Program-made: the position numbers and the translations under genes
In this document: positions 11,915 through 41,213 of the stretch, in pieces
How the letters are laid out: every line of letters starts with the position of its first letter
Numbering within the stretch: the stretch's first letter is position 1
Source of the DNA: a virus
Lineage: Duplodnaviria > Heunggongvirae > Uroviricota > Caudoviricetes
Strand: one strand, 5' to 3'
DNA length: 44,644 bases
Virus record (IMG/VR): IMGVR_UViG_2563366806_000004
Location: 1 to 44,644 of that record
Notes under the pieces: model-generated
The model's database searches: none
What the model was told of the DNA's origin: nothing
The model's input: only the letters and a program-made list of their open reading frames with translations

Positions 11915-12556
11915 TCAGGAGAATTTCATCATCATCTGCACTGCTACGCCGATTATCTTGCAGTTGCCGTCGATTGGGATCAACGGATAGGCAGGGTTAA
12001 GCCCTTTCAGGTATTTGTTACCGCCATCAATGATTAGCTTCTTGAACGTGGCTTCATTAGCATCTGTCAGCTTCGCAACTACCAGGCTTCCATTAACGGC
12101 TTCCTTTCCAGTGTCGAACAGAACCAGCATACCCTCAGGAACGCTAAGGCCGGTAGGAGCTGTCATTGAGTCGCCCTGAACCCTGAGCCAGAAGGCGTCA
12201 CCGACAACGTGACAATCTGATTCATACCACTCATCCACTGCCTGAGGGTTGTACGGCTCTACGGCCTCACTCCATGCACCTGCGCTAACCCAGCTAATCA
12301 ACGGAAACTTTTCCCCTGGCTTGTATTGTCCCTGATAGTTGTCGCCAAAAAGCAGTTCTGCCGGAGCGACGCCCAAAGCTTTAGCTATTACCTCTGCGTC
12401 ATCAACACTAACGCTTCTGGTTCCTGATTCATAGTTGCCGATCCGAGATTGTGAAGCCCAGCCGCAAAGCTCCGCCAGAGCCTTCTGTGAAAGCCCTTTA
12501 TCTTCCCGTAATCGCTTGATACGCGCGGCGATAGTTTCTGTTCTGTTCATGCGCAT
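11915..12556 (-). CDS. cI: CI-like prophage repressor (XRE-type HTH plus S24 LexA-like autopeptidase domain)
   Basis: 213-aa ORF; N-terminal HTH (LSQKALAELCGWASQSRIGNYESG); Ala-Gly cleavage site (SAGAW); GDSM serine motif and downstream Lys; flanked by oL and oR; not lambda cI. Confidence 0.8.
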   Translation of the reverse strand: MRMNRTETIAARIKRLREDKGLSQKALAELCGWASQSRIGNYESGTRSVSVDDAEVIAKALGVAPAELLFGDNYQGQYKPGEKFPLISWVSAGAWSEAVEPYNPQAVDEWYESDCHVVGDAFWLRVQGDSMTAPTGLSVPEGMLVLFDTGKEAVNGSLVVAKLTDANEATFKKLIIDGGNKYLKGLNPAYPLIPIDGNCKIIGVAVQMMMKFS

Positions 12557-13308: not shown

Positions 13309-13953
13309 ATGACATACGAAAATGACAAATTCCAGGTTCTGAAGAGCATGAAGGTGCCAGATGATTTTAAATCAAATGGCTTTGTTTATGTGCTTTCTAA
13401 TGAGTGCATGCCAGGAATTTATAAGATTGGGATGACTAAGCATTCACCAGAAGTTAGGGCTAAAGAAATTTCAGCCTCTACTGGCGTTCCTAAGCCATTT
13501 AAGGTGATAGCAGCCTTTCATTCAAATAATCCCGCATCAGATGAAAAACTCATTCATAAAGCCTTTGCAAAAGAGAGGCTTAGTGATAATCGAGAGTTTT
13601 TCAAGCTTGAAGATAATGAGCTTTCTGAATCTCTAAATGAAATAAGGGCGCTGGTTGGCCCTGAAAGAAATGGCGAGACGGCAGAATACGCAATTTACGA
13701 CTCATTCATTTCTTTTCGCCATGAAAATGAGCTTGATCTTAATGAGGAGCTTATAGAGCAAGGTCTGGGTAGTGTAGTTGGTCATCTTCCTGCGGTGAAA
13801 AATTTCCTTATTCGCGCCGGAATTGATTACGCGAAGCAACTGATAAGCAAATATAACTCATCGATAGTTATTAATACAGATGGCAGTGTGGTGATGGTTA
13901 AGTCTCTTGAAGCCCAATGCTTTGATGCGGAGGTTGGAAATGAGCCTGGCTGA
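13309..13953 (+). CDS. T5orf172 / GIY-YIG-like domain protein (accessory gene between cII and O)
   Basis: 214-aa ORF, RBS CAGGAG; N-terminal NGFVYVLSNECMPGIYKIGMTKHSPEVRAKEIS...PFKVIAAFHSNN...REFFKL resembles the T5orf172 (GIY-YIG-like) domain; AT-rich; 3' end overlaps O start by 14 nt. Confidence 0.6.
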   Translation: MTYENDKFQVLKSMKVPDDFKSNGFVYVLSNECMPGIYKIGMTKHSPEVRAKEISASTGVPKPFKVIAAFHSNNPASDEKLIHKAFAKERLSDNREFFKLEDNELSESLNEIRALVGPERNGETAEYAIYDSFISFRHENELDLNEELIEQGLGSVVGHLPAVKNFLIRAGIDYAKQLISKYNSSIVINTDGSVVMVKSLEAQCFDAEVGNEPG

Positions 13954-17348: not shown

Positions 17349-17524
17349 TTGACCAAAATCGAAGTTACGAACAAGGAAGTGTCGAGCGAGCTTTAACGTG
17401 CGCTAACTGCGGTCAGAAGCTGCATGTGCTGGAAGTTCACGTGTGTGAGCGTTGTATATATGAATGCTTAAATATGGTGGAACATAATGAGAAATATAAG
17501 CAACATAGACGAATTAAGAAATAA
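17345..17524 (+). pseudogene. ninF: ninF, 5' fragment interrupted by an HNH-gene insertion
   Basis: GTG-start ORF encodes ...ESVERALTCANCGQKLHVLEVHVCE as in lambda NinF, then diverges into AT-rich inserted sequence and stops at 17522..17524. Confidence 0.65.
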
Positions 17525-17993
17525 ATTATCATATGATGATGTTTTAGGTGTACTTAGATGGAAAGTGTCTCCTTCTAATAATGTTAAGGTTGGCAGTGTT
17601 GCTGGTTACATTAGGAGTGATGGTTATAGGATGTTAACTATCGATGGTGTAATTACTTATGCTCACCACGTTATATGGATGATAAATAATGGTGAGATTC
17701 CATTAGGGTATAAAATTGATCATATAAATGGAGTAAGGTCAGATAATAGGCTATCTAATCTTCGATTGGTTACACACCAACAGAATGCACAGAACCAAAA
17801 GAGAAAAATAACAAATTCGTCAGGAGTGACTGGAGTATATTTCAATAAAGAGAGATGTAAGTGGATTGCGAATATATGCGTAGATGGGCGCACCAAATAT
17901 CTTGGAATATTTGCTAGCATCATTGACGCTATTACAGAAAGGAAGAGGGCAGAAAAAGAACTGGGTTTTCATGAAAACCATGGTAGACCATAA
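17487..17993 (+). CDS. HNH homing-endonuclease-like protein inserted in ninF
   Basis: 168-aa ORF; AT-rich; RBS GGTGGA; resembles free-standing HNH homing endonucleases; lambda-like ninF sequence is found on both sides. Confidence 0.65.
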   Translation: MRNISNIDELRNKLSYDDVLGVLRWKVSPSNNVKVGSVAGYIRSDGYRMLTIDGVITYAHHVIWMINNGEIPLGYKIDHINGVRSDNRLSNLRLVTHQQNAQNQKRKITNSSGVTGVYFNKERCKWIANICVDGRTKYLGIFASIIDAITERKRAEKELGFHENHGRP

Positions 17994-18054
17994 CTGCGCA
18001 GAACTGATGAGCGATCCGAATAGCTCAATGTACGAGGAAGAAGACGATGAGTGA
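17980..18054 (+). pseudogene. ninF: ninF, 3' remnant
   Basis: Encodes (MVDHN)CAELMSDPNSSMYEEEDDE matching the lambda NinF C-terminus; out of frame with the 5' fragment. Confidence 0.6.
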
Positions 18055-18556
18055 TGTTAAAGAAAAAGATATCCCCGGCTTTGAGGGTATATATAAAGTA
18101 ACTGAAAATGGAGACATCATTTCATGCCGTAAATCAAAAAAATTATCTCATGGCATTAAACCAGGAGGATATGCATTTGTCGGTCTGTATCCAGGTGGCG
18201 GGAAAAGACCATCATATAAAATGGTTCACAGAATTGTTGCAGAAGTATTTATTGATAACCCAGATGGCAAACCGGAAGTTAATCACAAGGATGGAAATAA
18301 ACTTAATAATAAAGTTGAAAATCTTGAGTGGGTAACGCGAACAGAAAATGCGAAACATGGATTTGATTCCGGATTGCTTGTTCATGGGTTTAATCATCAC
18401 TTCTGCAAACTAACGCCAGAACAAGTGAAATCAATATATAAATCAAAAGGCAAATACAGAGATATAGCCAAAGAATTTGGTGTTTGTGCGCAGACAGTGT
18501 GCAACATAAAAAACAAATCAGCGTACCGACGTTTTTTGGAGGGGATTGATGTTTAG
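18047..18556 (+). CDS. Second HNH homing-endonuclease-like protein
   Basis: 169-aa ORF; GFEGIYKVTENGDIIS N-terminal motif and HKDGNKLNNKVENLEWVTRTEN HNH core; AT-rich. Confidence 0.65.
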   Translation: MSDVKEKDIPGFEGIYKVTENGDIISCRKSKKLSHGIKPGGYAFVGLYPGGGKRPSYKMVHRIVAEVFIDNPDGKPEVNHKDGNKLNNKVENLEWVTRTENAKHGFDSGLLVHGFNHHFCKLTPEQVKSIYKSKGKYRDIAKEFGVCAQTVCNIKNKSAYRRFLEGIDV

Positions 18557-19183: not shown

Positions 19184-19368
19184 ACGCCACAATTCAAACG
19201 ATACCAGAGCTTCTTATCCAGACACGAGGCAATCAGACCGAAGTGGCAAGGATGCTTTCCTGCGCAAGAGGAACAGTGCTCAAGTACAACCGAGACAGTA
19301 AAGGCGAGCGTCACGTAATAGTTAACGGCGTCCTGAGGGTCAAACAGGGAAAAAGGGGAAGGCCATGA
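19180..19368 (+). CDS. ninH: NinH
   Basis: 62-aa ORF; GNQTEVARMLSCARGTVLKY resembles lambda NinH. Confidence 0.7.
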   Translation: MNATIQTIPELLIQTRGNQTEVARMLSCARGTVLKYNRDSKGERHVIVNGVLRVKQGKRGRP

Positions 19369-19988
19369 GACTCGAAAGCGTAGCTAAATTTCATTCGCCA
19401 AAAAGCCCGATGATGAGCGACTCACCACGGGCCACGGCTTCTGACTCTCTTTCCGGTACTGATGTGATGGCTGCTATGGGGATGGCGCAATCACAAGCCG
19501 GATTCGGTATGGCTGCATTCTGCGGTAAGCACGAACTCAGCCAGAACGACAAACAAAAGGCTATCAACTATCTGATGCAATTTGCACACAAGGTATCGGG
19601 GAAATACCGTGGTGTGGCAAAGCTCGAAGGAAATACTAAGGCAAAGGTACTGCAAGTGCTCGCAACATTCGCTTATGCGGATTATTGCCGTAGTGCCGCG
19701 ACGCCGGGGGCAAGATGCAGAGATTGCCACGGTACAGGCCGTGCGGTTGATATATCAAAAACAGAGCTGTGGGGGAGAGTTGTTGAGAAAGAATGCGGAA
19801 GATGCAAAGGTGTCGGCTATTCAAGAATGCCAGCAAGCGCCGCATATCGCGCTGTGACGATGCTAATACCCAACCTTACCCAACCAACCTGGTCACGCAC
19901 TGTTAAGCCGCTGTATGACGCTCTGGTGGTGCAATGCCACAAGGAAGAGTCAATCGCAGACAACATTTTGAATGCGGTCACACGTTAG
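19365..19988 (+). CDS. Q: Late-gene antiterminator Q (lambda type)
   Basis: 207-aa ORF MRLESVAKFHSPKSPMMSDSPRATASDSLSG..., recognised as essentially lambda Q. Confidence 0.9.
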   Translation: MRLESVAKFHSPKSPMMSDSPRATASDSLSGTDVMAAMGMAQSQAGFGMAAFCGKHELSQNDKQKAINYLMQFAHKVSGKYRGVAKLEGNTKAKVLQVLATFAYADYCRSAATPGARCRDCHGTGRAVDISKTELWGRVVEKECGRCKGVGYSRMPASAAYRAVTMLIPNLTQPTWSRTVKPLYDALVVQCHKEESIADNILNAVTR

Positions 19989-20163: not shown

Positions 20164-20580
20164 TTAAGGGAGGGTTTTCATTACGCTATCAATCTCCCTT
20201 CCTTCAAATCTTGAAGTCCAGCCGCAGGAGCCGCAATGGTAAGGAAAGTCATCGAACCCGCTACCGACCTGTTTAAGACAGTTGGGGCAATAAACCGCGC
20301 TGATATACCCACCCGCGGGATTTTTTCTAAAGGCCGCACCCATGTGCTCGACAAACTCATCCTTTGCCCGATAAGCCGCTATTTCCTTCTCAAGTTCTAC
20401 GTTCTTGGCTTTCGCCTCGGCAAGTTCTGCTATGGTGGCAGCATGGGCTTTTTGAAGTACGTCGATCTGCTCTCCAATGAAAGCGATGCGCTCGCGCAGG
20501 ACCTCGTTACTTTGCACAGCAGAAAGCGCGCCGATCCCGTTTTTAAGGGACGCGATAAGTAATCCTACATCCATGGTCAT
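20164..20580 (-). CDS. Hypothetical coiled-coil protein with C-terminal CxxC...CxxC zinc-ribbon motif (antisense accessory gene between pR' and S)
   Basis: 138-aa ORF; start overlaps the stop of an upstream small ORF (ATGA); N-terminal heptad-like helix; C-terminal CPNCLKQVGSGFDDFPYHCGSCGW. Confidence 0.55.
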   Translation of the reverse strand: MTMDVGLLIASLKNGIGALSAVQSNEVLRERIAFIGEQIDVLQKAHAATIAELAEAKAKNVELEKEIAAYRAKDEFVEHMGAAFRKNPAGGYISAVYCPNCLKQVGSGFDDFPYHCGSCGWTSRFEGREIDSVMKTLP

Positions 20581-20714
20581 TCCCTAATTGTCTGTGGAAT
20601 GACCAATTTAGCAATTTCCTTTGTCTGTGGAAAGCAGGGAAACCACGCGCCGGGCGTGGATAAATATCCCGGTATTGAATCGACTGTTGGCTGCCGCTTG
20701 GCGGCCTTTTTCAT
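20577..20714 (-). CDS. Small basic hypothetical protein (translationally coupled to the 138-aa gene; start uncertain)
   Basis: 45 aa from ATG 20714 (MKKAAKRQPTVDSIPGYLSTPGAWFPCFPQTKEIAKLVIPQTIRE); the longer track ORF runs antisense into the holin gene. Confidence 0.35.
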   Translation of the reverse strand: MKKAAKRQPTVDSIPGYLSTPGAWFPCFPQTKEIAKLVIPQTIRE

Positions 20715-20829
20715 TTCAGGCTCACGGGAATCATCCGCTACGTGCTTTGTTGATAAATCCAGCCCGTGAAGCCTGACCCTTTTCAAACACACACACACAG
20801 CGCCATCCGAAAAATCGGAGGTGAGGCCT

Positions 20830-21153
20830 ATGAAAATGCCATACAAACAAGATTTCATCGCTGCGCTACTTGCCGCCAAGGAGCAGGGTATTGGTGCAAT
20901 GCTGGCTTTTATCATGGCGTATCTGCGTGGTCGCTATAACGGCGGCGCGGTAACAAAAACGCTAATTGATGCGCTGATGTGCGCGATGATTGCCTGGTTC
21001 GTTCGTGACCTTCTGGACTTTATCGGCCTGAGCAGCAACCTCGCCTACATAGCCAGCGTCTTTATTGGATACATCGGCACCGATTCGATCGGCAATCTTA
21101 TTAAAAAACTTGCAGCAAAAAAGGCGGGAGTTGACGATGCAAACCAGTCCTGA
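20830..21153 (+). CDS. S: Holin S (lambda class I, dual-start MKM motif)
   Basis: 107 aa from ATG 20830; [27 protein letters not shown]... resembles lambda S. Confidence 0.9.
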
Positions 21154-38095: not shown

Positions 38096-39157
38096 ATGTC
38101 TCTTAACTGGATGCGCCATTTTGAGCTGCAACTGTTGGACCAGAACGGGCAGGGCGTTTCCCTGTCTGACTTTAAGGTCACGTTCCAGATCGAGTGGGCA
38201 GACACACGCTGGCCGCGCGTGGCGAACGTGAAAATTTACAACCTTTCGACCGATACCACGAACAAGATACTGGGGCAGGAGTTTGCAAAAATTCGCATCA
38301 TTGCCGGGTATGACGGTATTGCGCCGGATGTTGATGCGAGCCAGGTTGGTGTCGCCCGGGAGATTTCACCAGACCAGGTAGGGCAGGTGAACGGTCAGAA
38401 CTACGGCCTGATATTTGACGGTGATATTCGCTTCACCGTCACCGGGAAGGACAACATTACGGATTCCTGGGTGCTGATTCAGGCCATCAGTAACCACGAA
38501 GCGTTCCTCTACGCGACTACCATCACCACGCTTGCCGCTGGCTATACCGTTGCGGATCTGCACCGGGCGACGATGCAGGATTTCAACGCGTTCGGCGTGA
38601 CGCAGGGCATTACCGGCGACTTTCCTGATACTGTGTTTCCTCGTGGCCGCGCGATTTACTCATCCACCCGTAACGTGATGGACAATATTGCTGCGCAGTG
38701 CAAAGCGACATGGCAGTTAGTGGATGGGCAGGTGCAGATGGTGCCGGAGGATAAATACATTCACGAAGCCATCGTGCTGAATGCCGATACTGGCCTGATC
38801 GGTATGCCGCAACAAACGATGGGCGGCGGAGTAAACGTGCGGTGCCTGATAAACCCAAACATCCGTATTAATGGTCTTATCCAGCTCGATCAGGCTTCGG
38901 TGTACCGCGCCGCGCTCGGCAATAGCGAAATCGCACAGTCGCCCGGGCGTATCACCGAAACAGAAGAGAACGGCAACCGTGTGCTGACCGGCACGACGTC
39001 ACAGGCTGCCAGCATTGCGACGGATGGCGTTTATATCGTCAAAGCTATCGACTATACTGGCGACACCAGAGGTCAGGCGTGGTACATGGATTTGATGTGT
39101 TTTGCGCGTGGCAGCCGCGATTTGCAGAGTAACGCATCACTTAACCGGACGTTTTAA
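38096..39157 (+). CDS. Putative baseplate hub-like protein
   Basis: 353-aa ORF in tail operon. Confidence 0.4.
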   Translation: MSLNWMRHFELQLLDQNGQGVSLSDFKVTFQIEWADTRWPRVANVKIYNLSTDTTNKILGQEFAKIRIIAGYDGIAPDVDASQVGVAREISPDQVGQVNGQNYGLIFDGDIRFTVTGKDNITDSWVLIQAISNHEAFLYATTITTLAAGYTVADLHRATMQDFNAFGVTQGITGDFPDTVFPRGRAIYSSTRNVMDNIAAQCKATWQLVDGQVQMVPEDKYIHEAIVLNADTGLIGMPQQTMGGGVNVRCLINPNIRINGLIQLDQASVYRAALGNSEIAQSPGRITETEENGNRVLTGTTSQAASIATDGVYIVKAIDYTGDTRGQAWYMDLMCFARGSRDLQSNASLNRTF

Positions 39158-39160
39158 AAA

Positions 39161-39511
39161 ATGAAAAAACTCATCCTGATGATTGCTTGCAGCTCTTTTG
39201 TCTTGGCGGGCGTGGCTCATGCTGATTCCCAGTGTGGGCCTTTCCACTTGGGCACGAGCCCGACAAATGATGGATGGGCACGCATTAACGGTGCGAAGCC
39301 TGAAAGTCAGAAGGTAACGTTCCTTAAGCAAAAAGAAGACTACGAGAACATTAAGATGGAATGGCGCATGGCTACTGACCAGCCTGGAAGATGGGTTGGT
39401 CTTGAGTACATCAAGCGCAACGGCAAAGCCATTCTCAACGCACAGTGGTTGCAAGCCAGCATGGATGCGCCGCGTCAGTATGCAACATACGACTGCGTGA
39501 AGGTGAAATGA
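39161..39511 (+). CDS. Secreted small protein (accessory gene inside the baseplate operon)
   Basis: 116-aa ORF with cleavable signal peptide MKKLILMIACSSFVLAGVAHA-DS; two Cys in mature part; no structural-protein features. Confidence 0.55.
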   Translation: MKKLILMIACSSFVLAGVAHADSQCGPFHLGTSPTNDGWARINGAKPESQKVTFLKQKEDYENIKMEWRMATDQPGRWVGLEYIKRNGKAILNAQWLQASMDAPRQYATYDCVKVK

Positions 39512-39540
39512 TGATCCGCATCCTTAAACATCAATAATCG

Positions 39541-39583
39541 TTGATCTCGCGTTTTTATTATGCACTAATCTGTACATGTACAG
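39541..39583 (+). promoter_or_regulatory. Putative promoter and palindromic operator of the toxin-antitoxin operon
   Basis: Perfect 14-bp palindrome CTGTACATGTACAG at 39570..39583 overlapping candidate -10 TAATCT (39566..39571) with -35 TTGATC (39541..39546). Confidence 0.5.
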
Positions 39584-39593
39584 AGAGGGTGCC

Positions 39594-40007
39594 ATGAAAA
39601 TCATTACTTACACGCAAATGCGATCGGATTTATCTGCAACGCTGGACTGTTTACGCTCTGGTGAAAGCGTCACAGTTACGCAGCGCGGAAAGCCCGACCT
39701 TGTCATCAGTGCAAAATCAGTTGATGAAATCGCTTCCGCAGATGAGGTAAAAACATCTGCGAAAACAATAGACACGCATCTTGCGCAATTAATTGCATCG
39801 AATTTGTCACCACAGATAACGGAGGGTGTCATGAAGCTTACTAAGCAATTGGATGCCCTTCTTCAGTCTGATGAGGCTCGCCAGACTATGATGAAGGCCA
39901 CTAATGCAGCAGTTGCTTTGCAGGGCGTGTCTGAGTCATTTATCAAAGCTCTGCAACATACTCAGACCAAGCATGCGGACATCATAAAAAAACTGGAAGA
40001 TAAGTAA
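39594..40007 (+). CDS. phd: Phd/YefM-like antitoxin with extended C-terminal region
   Basis: 137 aa from ATG 39594; N-terminal MKIITYTQMRSDLSATLDCLRSGESVTVTQRGKPDLVISAKSVDE resembles Phd/YefM; stop overlaps doc start. Confidence 0.6.
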   Translation: MKIITYTQMRSDLSATLDCLRSGESVTVTQRGKPDLVISAKSVDEIASADEVKTSAKTIDTHLAQLIASNLSPQITEGVMKLTKQLDALLQSDEARQTMMKATNAAVALQGVSESFIKALQHTQTKHADIIKKLEDK

Positions 40008-40414
40008 TGACTGAGATTACATTCCTTTCGGTAGATGAGGTCATCGCTATTCAGAAGAGCACATTGCCAAATAGCGGACAACCAGACCGGGGAAAACTCG
40101 AAGGTGCCCTCAATCGCGTCGATAACTTACGCATGTATGAAGGATGTGAGGATTTATTTAAATTTGCAGCTATGTACATGGTTGCGATAGCGAAGTCTCA
40201 CGCTTTTAATGACGCCAATAAGCGAACGGCTTTCCAGGCCGCCAGCGTGTTTTTGCTTTTGAATGGCTATGAACTGAATACCTCAATGGAGTTAGTCAAG
40301 CTGACCATCTTTGCTGCTACGGGAGAGGCCGACTGCGATAACACTGCTTTGGCGCTTAAACTTTTGTCAGATTATAAGAATGAGCTGCTGGCAGATACGA
40401 TAACTGGCTACTGA
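40007..40414 (+). CDS. doc: Doc (death-on-curing) Fic-family toxin
   Basis: 135-aa ORF; HAFNDANKRTAFQAASVFLLLNGYEL resembles the P1 Doc Fic-like motif (HIFNDANKRTALNSALLFLRRNG). Confidence 0.75.
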   Translation: MTEITFLSVDEVIAIQKSTLPNSGQPDRGKLEGALNRVDNLRMYEGCEDLFKFAAMYMVAIAKSHAFNDANKRTAFQAASVFLLLNGYELNTSMELVKLTIFAATGEADCDNTALALKLLSDYKNELLADTITGY

Positions 40415-40437
40415 TAGCAAAAAGTAAATTGTACACA

Positions 40438-40461
40438 ACCCGCCGCCGAGCGGGTTTTTTT
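40438..40461 (+). terminator. Intrinsic terminator after doc
   Basis: Stem ACCCGC/GCGGGT, loop CGCCGA, followed by TTTTTTT. Confidence 0.6.
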
Positions 40462-40472
40462 ATGGAGTTTTT

Positions 40473-41213
40473 ATGCCAATTCCAACTCAATCACAGATCG
40501 GCGGCGAGCAGCAGACCGCGCAGGCCATAGCCGATTCGGTGTCTACCCAGATGCGCGTAGCGATGCCAGGCATCATTCAGTCGTTCGATCCTGACGCTGT
40601 AACCTGCACAGTAGAAGTGGCGCTTCGCGGTATTGTTGGCGACGGCTCCACCGAATTAAAACCGCTGGTGGATGTTCCTGTCATCTTCCCGCGCGGCGGC
40701 GGCTGCACGCTGACCTTTCCGGTTAAAGAAGGCGACGAGTGCCTGCTGCTCTTTGCCGACCGTTGCATCGATTTCTGGTGGCAGAGCGGCGGCGTGCAGG
40801 AGACCGTCGACCCGCGCCAGCATGACTTATCTGATGCGTTCGCCATCGTTGGCCCACAGTCGCAAGCACGGAAAATCAGCGGTATCAGTACCAGCGCCGC
40901 GCAGCTGCGAACCGATGATGGTGCGGCGTTTGTAGAAGTCGCCGCAGGACATAACATCACCATTAAAACACCGGGCCAGCTTACAGCTACGGCTGAAGGT
41001 GGAACGACAATCACATCCCCGACTATCACGCTGAACGGCAACGTAACGATTAATGGCAACTTGTCTCAGGGAATGGGCGAAAGCGGCGGTACTGCGACGA
41101 TGCTTGGGCCGGTGACGGTAACGAATGACGTAACAGCTTCTGGTATCAGTGTCGCCACGCATAAACATGGCGGAGTACAGACTGGCGGGGGAACTACCGG
41201 AGGGCCGCAATAA
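40473..41213 (+). CDS. Baseplate central spike protein (Gp138 N-terminal-domain-like)
   Basis: 246-aa ORF; LVDVPVIFPRGGGCTLTFPVKEGDECLLLFADRCIDFWW resembles the Gp138_N domain; C-terminal Gly/Thr-rich repeats. Confidence 0.5.
   Translation: MPIPTQSQIGGEQQTAQAIADSVSTQMRVAMPGIIQSFDPDAVTCTVEVALRGIVGDGSTELKPLVDVPVIFPRGGGCTLTFPVKEGDECLLLFADRCIDFWWQSGGVQETVDPRQHDLSDAFAIVGPQSQARKISGISTSAAQLRTDDGAAFVEVAAGHNITIKTPGQLTATAEGGTTITSPTITLNGNVTINGNLSQGMGESGGTATMLGPVTVTNDVTASGISVATHKHGGVQTGGGTTGGPQ

Follow-up and report, generated by a model that had tools for sequence, protein, structure and literature searches.

A probable Phd/Doc toxin–antitoxin operon with an internally lengthened antitoxin and a single compact predicted operator, carried in a tail-module cargo slot of a temperate prophage

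The closest described systems to the locus analysed here are the Phd/Doc modules of phage P1 (PDB 3k33, 3dd7, 4zm0) and Salmonella Typhimurium (PMC9207808), the YefM-YoeB and Axe-Txe modules (PMC1802561), and the Phd-Doc pair of Enterococcus faecalis (PMC13034048, PDB 9vzc). P1 Phd is a protein of 73 aa encoded by a module that lies outside the tail genes of a plasmid prophage, and its operator consists of two 8-bp palindromes whose centres lie 13 bp from each other (PMC1802561). The operators of YefM have TGTACA cores and those of Phd have GTAC cores, and in yefM-yoeB a 6-bp spacer separates the paired 5′-TGTACA-3′ hexamers near the start codon, so that their centres are 12 bp apart (PMC1802561). 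The Salmonella module is chromosomal and encodes an enterobacterial Doc kinase that is neutralised by the C-terminal helical peptide of its antitoxin, which is again 73 aa long, and in the Phd proteins of both P1 and Salmonella, the last 22 residues are enough to neutralise Doc (PMC9207808). The E. faecalis system also has a Doc-family toxin, together with an antitoxin whose N-domain is AbrB/MazE-like, and it uses a single palindromic operator rather than the dual sites of P1.

The 44.6-kb window (the whole stretch of viral DNA that we analysed) very probably carries a functional, autoregulated type II Phd/Doc toxin–antitoxin operon, present as moron-type cargo of an integrated temperate prophage, in a recombination slot of its tail module. 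A sequence-only reading of the same DNA had proposed the core of this, namely a Phd/Doc operon with a palindromic operator that forms an autonomous cassette inside the tail module, and we find all of these features in place. The antitoxin gene comes first and is followed by the coupled toxin gene, with the stop codon of the one and the start codon of the other sharing one base, as had been noticed (TAATG at 40005-40009), and an overlap of 1 or 4 nt is found in 16 of 16 antitoxin-Doc pairs of the family. By this overlap the two genes are coupled in translation, and by dN/dS purifying selection acts on both. The antitoxin-first, translationally coupled order is shared with P1, as are the length class and catalytic motif of Doc, the N-terminal fold of the antitoxin, GTAC-core palindromic DNA upstream and carriage by a temperate phage, whereas the P1 prophage is a plasmid and the one studied here is integrated, with the cassette inside its tail module. 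Automated RefSeq annotation has already labelled the two proteins a Phd/Doc pair, so this kind of system is known, and as a Phd/Doc module the cassette adds little; the architecture of its antitoxin and its single compact operator make it an uncharacterised variant of Phd/Doc. Our literature search found no experiment on this cassette.

We propose that a dimer of the antitoxin would bind TGTACATGTACA through its N-domain and so repress a weak promoter immediately upstream, while its conserved C-terminal helix (residues about 113-137) would bind and block Doc. Free Doc would phosphorylate EF-Tu, as P1 Doc does on Thr382, and translation would stop. In a lysogen, the cassette would be transcribed independently and its transcript would end at a hairpin, so that the tail genes would remain silent, and during lytic growth polymerase modified by the prophage Q antiterminator would read through that hairpin. 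The cassette most likely pays off by securing its own retention and that of the prophage, through the killing or arrest of cells that lose them, and abortive infection of superinfecting phages is nearly equally likely as an additional or alternative benefit.

The toxin gene (40007-40414, + strand) encodes a death-on-curing (Doc) kinase toxin of 135 aa with a Fic fold. The protein scores 45.4 bits against Pfam Fic PF02661 (cutoff 24) and 81.3 bits against TIGR01550 DOC_P1 (cutoff 38.65), and it matches P1 Doc (3k33_A) at E = 7.3e-20, with residues 7-119 aligned to chain residues 4-120, which bears out the earlier assignment to the Doc family (Fic-like); it also matches E. faecalis 9vzc at E = 3e-10. 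That assignment had been said to stand or fall with the conserved Fic motif residues, and these are intact, because the catalytic motif H65-A-F-N-D-A-N-K-R73 (HAFNDANKR; 40199-40225, + strand) fits the pattern HxFx(D/N)(A/G)NKR and aligns with HIFNDANKR of P1 Doc. All 16 Doc proteins of the family that we examined carry the pattern H.F..[AG]NKR, and dN/dS for Doc is 0.02-0.05. The protein is closely related to P1 Doc in structure and sequence and retains the catalytic motif, and we predict that it is toxic.

The whole cassette lies inside an exchangeable cargo segment of ~937 bp (39512-40448, + strand) that is marked by homology breakpoints and a dip in GC. When the same baseplate interval is compared in related phages, it shows a presence/absence polymorphism with sharp breakpoints at 39511 and 40449: homology to relatives with other cargo ends at 39507-39511 and restarts at 40449/40450, and GC is 0.44-0.46 inside the cassette versus 0.50-0.60 in the flanking tail genes, or roughly 45% versus 55%. 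On the left, the backbone encodes a 116-aa protein with a signal-peptide-like N-terminus (39161-39511, + strand) that belongs to no Pfam, NCBIfam or PADLOC family. This protein is kept in relatives without the toxin–antitoxin cassette (L003, L004 and L005), where homology stops at its stop codon, and because of this retention we ruled it out as a third component of the system. On the right, the backbone continues with a baseplate spike protein (40473-41213, + strand), recognised by a Pfam spike N-domain at 140 bits and an Apex motif, and the DNA of this gene is 92-95% identical to that of relatives lacking the cassette. The slot has the baseplate hub region on one side and the spike gene on the other, within a myovirus tail module of the SEN34 (Brunovirus)-like type. 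Its cargo is a 210-aa ORF in 730V1, a reverse-strand DUF4236 gene in TOK-001, a 128-aa secreted-type ORF in the isolated Citrobacter phage Omnitron and two small ORFs in SEN34, and the cassette described here occupies the same slot in prophages of E. coli, Serratia, Pantoea and Pectobacterium. The location between baseplate genes had been called unusual; it is indeed inside the tail module, but it is a recurrent cargo slot of this phage lineage and not a one-off.

Phage morons and prophage accessory-gene hotspots are a concept that comes from HK97/lambda-type phages and from P2-like defence hotspots. Like a moron, the cassette is inserted between two late genes that are essential, has a base composition of its own and ends in a terminator; it is presumably regulated independently, and some relatives have it where others have different genes. 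Unlike the known moron and defence hotspots, this one is the hub-spike slot of a SEN34-like tail module, and its other cargoes have no match to a known defence family. The intrinsic terminator at its end (40437-40463, + strand), which was called by a scan and by folding, reads AACCCGC-CGCCGA-GCGGGTT followed by T7, that is, a 7-bp GC-rich stem, a 6-nt loop and a T7 run, and it ends 9 nt before the spike start codon. A hairpin is found here in every slot variant, with a different stem sequence and the same T-run and spike ribosome-binding site, and hence it is a feature of the slot and not unique to the toxin–antitoxin cassette. The sequence-only reading had the terminator right but called it strong, and the fold, at -11.2 kcal/mol, is of modest stability. 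The same hairpin accounts for the only Rfam match, a sub-threshold one to Trp_leader (28.4 bits vs 41).

The composition of this slot bears on whether the same molecular device serves mainly in anti-phage abortive infection, which we regard as a real possibility though not the favoured one. A superinfecting phage would shut off host expression, the labile antitoxin would decay and the freed Doc would arrest translation, leaving the cycle of the invader incomplete and the lysogen population protected. Other toxin–antitoxin families act in phage defence, and several features of the locus fit such a role: the cassette occurs at two or more different prophage positions (at least), the slot holds diverse small accessory genes in relatives, and Doc gives weak PADLOC matches to candidate-system models, including the candidate defence model PDC-M59B (E = 1.9e-6). 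However, none of the alternative cargo proteins matches a PADLOC defence model, so that a defence hotspot is not demonstrated here and we rejected that view of the slot; the antitoxin has no PADLOC match, and our literature search gave no report of Doc-mediated phage defence.

The antitoxin that would keep Doc in check is a Phd-type protein of 137 aa starting with MKIITYTQMR (39594-40007, + strand); if translation began instead at the ATG at 39576, within the palindrome, the product would have 143 aa. Residues 1-40 form a Phd/YefM domain, with predicted DNA binding, according to PF02604, the P1 Phd profile match, Foldseek and AF2. On its own, PF02604 covers residues 1-38 only, at 28.5 bits and just under its cutoff of 29.8, and TIGR01552 is likewise just under its cutoff (20.2 bits vs 20.8); precomputed Pfam assigns PF02604 to the identical protein, and the profile of the antitoxin family matches P1 Phd at E = 5.5e-5. 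In the AF2 model, pLDDT is about 87 for residues 1-40 and <50 for residues 45-57, with helices at 73-136. The best Foldseek matches of this model are all P1 Phd (3hs2, 4zm2, 4zlx) and YefM comes next, with TM values of 0.68-0.78 to the P1 Phd N-domain targets, including the DNA-bound forms 4zm0/4zm2, and with an rmsd of 2.2 Å over 45 columns for 4zlx. The modelled N-terminal domain thus has the Phd fold, as the Phd/YefM-like N-terminus of the earlier reading implied, and this sets it in the same superfamily as the YefM N-domain and apart from the AbrB/MazE-like domain of E. faecalis.

A long C-terminal extension, which had also been proposed, is not what we find, as the extra length sits internally, before a conserved C-terminal tail. 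Conservation across the subfamily, whose members range from 94 to 214 aa, points to a variable-length insertion between the conserved N-terminal Phd domain and this tail; in comparison with P1 Phd, the insertion comprises ~70 residues of linker and helices, and the Salmonella antitoxin is shorter by the same measure (73 aa vs 137 aa). Residues 41-65 are a hypervariable disordered linker by conservation, AF2 and dN/dS, residues 66-112 are helical and moderately conserved by conservation and AF2, and residues 113-137 are the near-invariant tail SFIKALQHTQTKHADIIKKLEDK, a presumed Doc-binding helix, by conservation and dN/dS. The dN/dS values are 0-0.07 in the N-domain, 0.02-0.08 in the tail and 0.11-0.54 in the linker. 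The sole match of the middle segment is a sub-threshold one to HTH_40, and although the profile of the C-terminal half also matched very long proteins of repetitive sequence (P0075, P0076), we set these matches aside since they look compositional.

From the conservation of the tail and from the existence of tail-only ORFs beside Doc, we infer that the tail is a Doc-binding module and the functional equivalent of Phd 52-73. In Xenorhabdus, ORFs of ~56 aa retain only the antitoxin tail and lie directly upstream of Doc. Alignment by hhalign of the profile of the C-terminal half with the Doc-binding segment of P1 Phd (52-73) gave no detectable homology (probability 0.3%), and local alignment of the tail to the P1 and Salmonella neutralising peptides was no better than with shuffles. 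Salmonella Phd and the antitoxin described here both end in H-x-x-x-(L/I)-x-x-L-x-D-K, but this tail likeness is not significant, and we rejected homology of the tail to the hot spots of Salmonella Phd52-73 (H63/L67/L70 vs H127/I131/L134), as 434 of 5000 shuffles scored at least as well. The hot-spot likeness is attractive by eye and is kept as a lead only.

The predicted operator is a perfect 14-bp palindrome, CTGTACATGTACAG (39570-39583), which lies upstream of the antitoxin gene as the earlier reading had it, and its core is the dodecamer TGTACATGTACA (39571-39582), made of two abutting TGTACA hexamers. CTGTACATGTACAG is unique in the window, where 0.08 matches are expected even if 2 mismatches are allowed; the lone hexamer TGTACA is not enriched there (7 found vs 6.2 expected), and there is no second TGTACA within 110 nt upstream of the site. 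The two separate operator sites 12-13 bp apart centre to centre that are seen in P1 phd-doc and yefM-yoeB are therefore not present here. Unlike P1 but like E. faecalis, the locus has just one site; this spans 12-14 bp, and its two GTAC cores are separated by only 6 bp. In contrast to yefM-yoeB, with which the locus shares the paired hexamers near the start codon (their recognition here being predicted), the hexamers abut at 6 bp and the toxin partner is Doc instead of YoeB. The two GTAC cores lie on opposite helix faces. Between copies that are ~82% identical in coding DNA, 25 bases at the operator are invariant. In the ~297 kb examined, 20 of 20 occurrences of the dodecamer stand 10-18 nt upstream of an antitoxin with the N-domain and nowhere else, such loci retain the dodecamer even where antitoxin identity falls to 33%, and all 9 loci with a tail-only ORF lack it upstream. 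The 12-bp upstream site thus co-occurs strictly with the antitoxin N-domain.

We consider it quite unlikely that the palindrome acts instead as RNA, as a hairpin in the mRNA leader beside the ribosome-binding site that tunes antitoxin translation or mRNA stability. The leader (39560-39600) does fold at -12.8 kcal/mol with a z-score of -2.7, 2 of 200 shuffles being as stable, and the outer stem extends into the Shine-Dalgarno region. However, the outer stem is not kept in two relatives (L008 and L023), the invariance of the dodecamer means that there is no covariation to support an RNA stem, and the site is found only where the DNA-binding N-domain is found. In addition, the TGTACA/GTAC cores match operators experimentally bound by YefM and Phd (PMC1802561). 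RNA-level and protein-operator roles of the palindrome are not mutually exclusive, and binding by the antitoxin is the role that we prefer.

The operator is well supported by its conservation, but the consensus scan lends the promoter no support. A sigma-70 consensus scan of 39100-40800 called no promoter, and the promoter that the palindrome had been predicted to overlap was accordingly not confirmed. A candidate weak promoter was picked by hand (39541-39569, + strand), with -35 TTGATC at 39541-46, a 17-nt spacer and -10 ACTAAT at 39564-69; it scores only 8/12, and the second position of its -10 is not the conserved A. Its register recurs in four relatives (L002, L008, L023 and L024) as TTGCTC/TTGCCT-17-GCTAAT, and the block ATG.GCTAAYC adjoining the operator is conserved family-wide. 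Because no promoter passed the consensus scan, independent transcription in the lysogen is something that we infer.

The lack of a strong promoter of its own in the consensus scan would also suit a cassette whose Doc is used by the phage in lytic growth, for example in late shut-off of host translation, through read-through from the late tail operon and with no role in addiction or defence. The cassette is co-oriented with that operon, and the prophage, which encodes an integrase and a CI-like repressor, has a Q antiterminator that can read through terminators. Even so, this is very unlikely, because a translation-arresting kinase made alongside the tail genes would block the late protein synthesis of the phage itself, a conserved operator and antitoxin are typical of autoregulated toxin–antitoxin operons expressed in lysogens, the cassette is dispensable and missing in close relatives including Omnitron, and the same cassette is found in Serratia bockelmannii at a different prophage position, outside any tail operon. 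That the cassette is a remnant, inert or decaying and now without function, is scarcely credible, since its rarity (6 of 5,426 complete E. coli genomes, and the antitoxin in 0 of 50,697 deposited phage genomes) is outweighed by two intact ORFs, a catalytic motif intact in 16 of 16 homologues, dN/dS of 0.02-0.17, an identical antitoxin on 506 contigs across Enterobacteriaceae and a non-coding operator that is better conserved than coding DNA. We also rejected a plasmid origin of the cassette, as there was no plasmid match even at distant sensitivity.

The cassette defines an uncharacterised antitoxin subfamily in which a DNA-binding head and a toxin-binding tail (both functions predicted) stay constant around a middle that can vary freely. 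Doc genes that are paired with the tail alone provide a natural dissection of DNA-binding versus toxin-binding functions, and the invariant 12-bp operator, with a layout unlike the P1 and YefM paradigms, could test the generality of conditional cooperativity. The hub-spike slot offers natural variants of near-identical prophages with the toxin–antitoxin cassette, with other cargo or with different cargo, and this is a clean system for asking whether a prophage-borne toxin–antitoxin pair serves addiction or phage defence. A more speculative reading, which we think unlikely, is that the long, hypervariable central part of the antitoxin, far from being a passive spacer, serves in sensing or assembly, for example by binding a protein of the incoming phage or by bridging Doc molecules, and that together with the compact operator it gives a trigger and repression stoichiometry other than those of P1; if true, the subfamily would depart in both from the conditional cooperativity of P1. 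In a related reading, the orphan tail-only ORFs, found in Xenorhabdus and on viral contigs without a Doc gene, would be phage-encoded anti-Doc counter-defence peptides.

We also considered an internal translation start at Met80 of the antitoxin (GGAGGGTGTCATG, 39822-39833). Such a start is not general, as several members of the family have V, K or A at this residue, and the bases that resemble a Shine-Dalgarno sequence encode the conserved residues T-E-G, which counts against it. Database ORFs of 56-58 aa that begin at Met80 (P0069, P0071) may be gene-calling artefacts on short contigs. The region of the Met80 start is conserved in DEC5A.

The cassette comprises an antitoxin ORF of 137 aa (39594-40007) and a toxin ORF of 135 aa (40007-40414), whose start overlaps the last base of the antitoxin stop codon (TAATG). 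The perfect 14-bp palindrome CTGTACATGTACAG (39570-39583) lies 10 nt 5′ of the antitoxin start codon and is present in a single copy in the window, where 0.08 matches would be expected even at ≤2 mismatches, and a terminator made of a hairpin and a T7 run follows the toxin gene (40437-40463). The sequence-only reading had placed all of these elements in the interval 39541-40461, and they are present as described. The promoter it also predicted was not confirmed: a consensus scan of the cassette region found none, and TTGATC-17-ACTAAT (39541-39569), the best candidate, is weak, but relatives show the same register. A second in-frame ATG for the antitoxin, upstream at 39576 within the palindrome, would give a 143-aa form that some databases call. 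An Rfam Trp_leader match at 40380-40463 was sub-threshold (28.4 bits; gathering score 41) and does not mark a true leader; it arises because the cassette terminator hairpin resembles the trp attenuator terminator.

Both proteins are already labelled in RefSeq, as a Phd/YefM antitoxin and a death-on-curing toxin, and the kind of system is thus known and the finding largely ordinary. By every computational test available, the 135-aa protein is a Doc toxin. It scores 45.4 bits against Pfam Fic (cutoff 24) and 81.3 bits against TIGR01550 DOC_P1 (cutoff 38.65), and its residues 7-119 match P1 Doc crystal-structure sequences with E = 7e-20, all in agreement with the Doc-family (Fic-like) identity first proposed. 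The Doc-specific catalytic motif H65-AFNDANK-R73 (40199-40225) is unbroken and is kept in all 16 family homologues extracted, and therefore the missing Fic residues that were to count against this identity are in fact present. Against three diverged copies, dN/dS of Doc is 0.02-0.05.

The resemblance of the antitoxin to Phd is limited to residues 1-40, and the protein falls slightly under the curated cutoffs (28.5 bits versus 29.8 for PF02604; 20.2 versus 20.8 for TIGR01552). A profile of 21 antitoxin family members matches P1 Phd (E = 5.5e-5). In the AlphaFold model the N-domain is confident (pLDDT about 87), and the top structural matches are all to the N-domain of P1 Phd, some of them in DNA-bound form, with YefM next. 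Family members range from 94 to 214 aa; they are nearly invariant at both ends, in the N-domain and over the final ~25 residues (F116..AL..T..HA.II..LEDK137), and highly variable in length and sequence in the middle. The dN/dS by segment agrees with this pattern (N-domain 0-0.07, tail 0.02-0.08, linker 0.11-0.54), and the model shows disorder at residues 45-57 and three helices over 73-136. Of the long Phd-like antitoxin originally described, the Phd-like N-terminus is thus borne out, and what was taken for a C-terminal extension is a variable middle between conserved N-domain and tail. In P0083, a 214-aa homologue, the middle consists of tandem helical repeats (…ELVEQ.RKSGVFELQKQL.ATGVAR…), and the head-tail spacer can evidently grow by internal duplication. 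A Shine-Dalgarno-like GGAGGG with an ATG at antitoxin Met80 (39822-39833) is kept in the O55:H7 DEC5A copy, and metagenomic gene calls of 56-58 aa (P0069, P0071) start there or close by; conservation of Met80 does not extend to the whole family, and therefore there is probably no regulated internal start.

Homology between the antitoxin tail and the Doc-binding segment of P1 Phd was not detectable, and a resemblance, noted by eye, to hot-spot residues in the Salmonella Phd neutralising peptide (PMC9207808) was not significant. Independent genomic evidence, namely ~56-aa tail-only ORFs directly upstream of Doc genes in Xenorhabdus, points to the tail as a Doc-neutralising module. Orphan tail-only short ORFs (...EAFKKALLHTQ.K.ADIIKALEDK), with no Doc gene detected nearby, occur in the loci L032 (3839-4078), L016/L031 (3929-4156) and L019 (3923-4159), and could be remnants or phage-encoded anti-Doc peptides. 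In L032, a viral contig, the ORF is just upstream of a baseplate hub gene; in L019 it comes after two small ORFs, HicB/HicA-like by eye, next to a spike gene.

Coding DNA of the DEC5A copy is about 82% identical to that of the window, yet an uninterrupted stretch of 25 bases around the palindrome shows no change. Thirteen distinct upstream regions were aligned, from loci with antitoxin identities down to 33-39% (in Morganella, Enterobacter mori, Lelliottia, Gilliamella and uncultured viral contigs), and the dodecamer TGTACATGTACA is found in every one, 10-18 nt 5′ of the start codon, with diverging flanks. It occurs 20 times in about 297 kb of sequence, always at this position; we estimate that chance would give about 0.02 occurrences of a 12-mer over such a length. 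It is absent from nine loci encoding the tail alone, so site and DNA-binding domain travel together. This conservation is strong evidence for a putative operator, and action of the palindrome as an RNA hairpin is less well supported. By experiment, YefM recognizes TGTACA cores and Phd GTAC cores (PMC1802561); whereas each of these has two sites 12-13 bp apart, the layout here is a single site in which two hexamers abut, their centres 6 bp apart.

The window has the sequence of an integrated temperate prophage. At its left end (1-2489), a host pectinesterase-like gene, cut off by the edge of the window, adjoins a lambda-type integrase with an arm-binding domain (1419-2489), so the window begins at the prophage-chromosome junction. 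A CI/LexA-like repressor (11915-12556), O/DnaC-like replication genes, a Q antiterminator (19365-19988) and lysis genes are present, and after them comes a myovirus tail module in the order Dit-like protein, plug, hub, spike, an ORF of 117 aa (in related loci, its counterpart matches the sheath-initiator family) and baseplate J. Between hub and spike, homology to relatives ends at the stop codon of a 116-aa ORF (39511) and restarts at 40449, within the 3′ arm of the terminator, and GC drops to about 45% in the cassette. Relatives carry other cargo in this slot: 730V1 has a 210-aa ORF, TOK-001 a DUF4236 gene on the reverse strand, Citrobacter phage Omnitron a 128-aa ORF of secreted type, and SEN34 two small ORFs. 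Each variant is closed by its own GC-rich hairpin (40437-40463 here; equivalents in the related loci L002-L007), including phage SEN34 and the opposite-strand TOK-001 cargo; the hairpins differ in stem sequence but keep the T-run and spike RBS, so the late tail operon has a built-in terminator, presumably needing Q-mediated read-through. The 116-aa ORF itself (39161-39511), which separates the hub from the cargo slot, has a signal-peptide-like N-terminus (MKKLILMIACSSFVLAGVAHA), is 46-100% identical across the lineage and matches no Pfam, NCBIfam or PADLOC family.

The same slot holds the cassette in E. coli ABWA45 and ECONIH5 (100% and 99.9% identity over the cassette itself) and in the diverged DEC5A prophage, Serratia sp. 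Ag1, viral contig L023, Pantoea ananatis and Pectobacterium actinidiae, and at these last five loci Doc shows far higher conservation than the structural genes do. The Serratia bockelmannii copy of the cassette instead sits in a prophage of another type, between its antiterminator and terminase genes. The cassette is rare: 6 of 5,426 complete E. coli genomes have it, each time on the chromosome, and no plasmid or deposited phage genome does; despite this rarity, the identical antitoxin is on 506 contigs of a large collection. Our literature search found no description of the antitoxin architecture (head, variable middle, tail), of a single compact invariant operator such as the putative one here, or of a recurrent hub-spike cargo slot.

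The analysis shows what the two proteins are, that their genes are coupled and under selection, that the dodecamer occurs together with the DNA-binding domain, and where the cassette begins and ends. To this we add a mechanism inferred from what is established for P1 Phd/Doc and YefM/YoeB. An antitoxin dimer at the dodecamer would repress the operon, and the antitoxin C-terminal helix would block Doc; free Doc would phosphorylate EF-Tu and stop translation. In the lysogen the cassette transcript would stop at the hairpin, which Q-modified polymerase would read through in lytic growth. Of the possible biological payoffs, we rank retention of cassette and prophage slightly above abortive infection, against which it counts that the other cargoes of the slot match no known defence family; the literature searched held nothing on Doc-based defence.

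Elsewhere in the window, a pair of minus-strand ORFs (20164-20915) of 138 and 112 aa, without Pfam matches, separates the Q antiterminator from the lysozyme gene. The interval downstream of Q is a classic position for accessory genes, and this may be a further slot of that kind. A 214-aa T5orf172/MUG113-domain protein is encoded between the immunity region and the replication O gene (13309-13953), and a little beyond it are two tandem HNH endonuclease genes (17487-17993 and 18047-18556).
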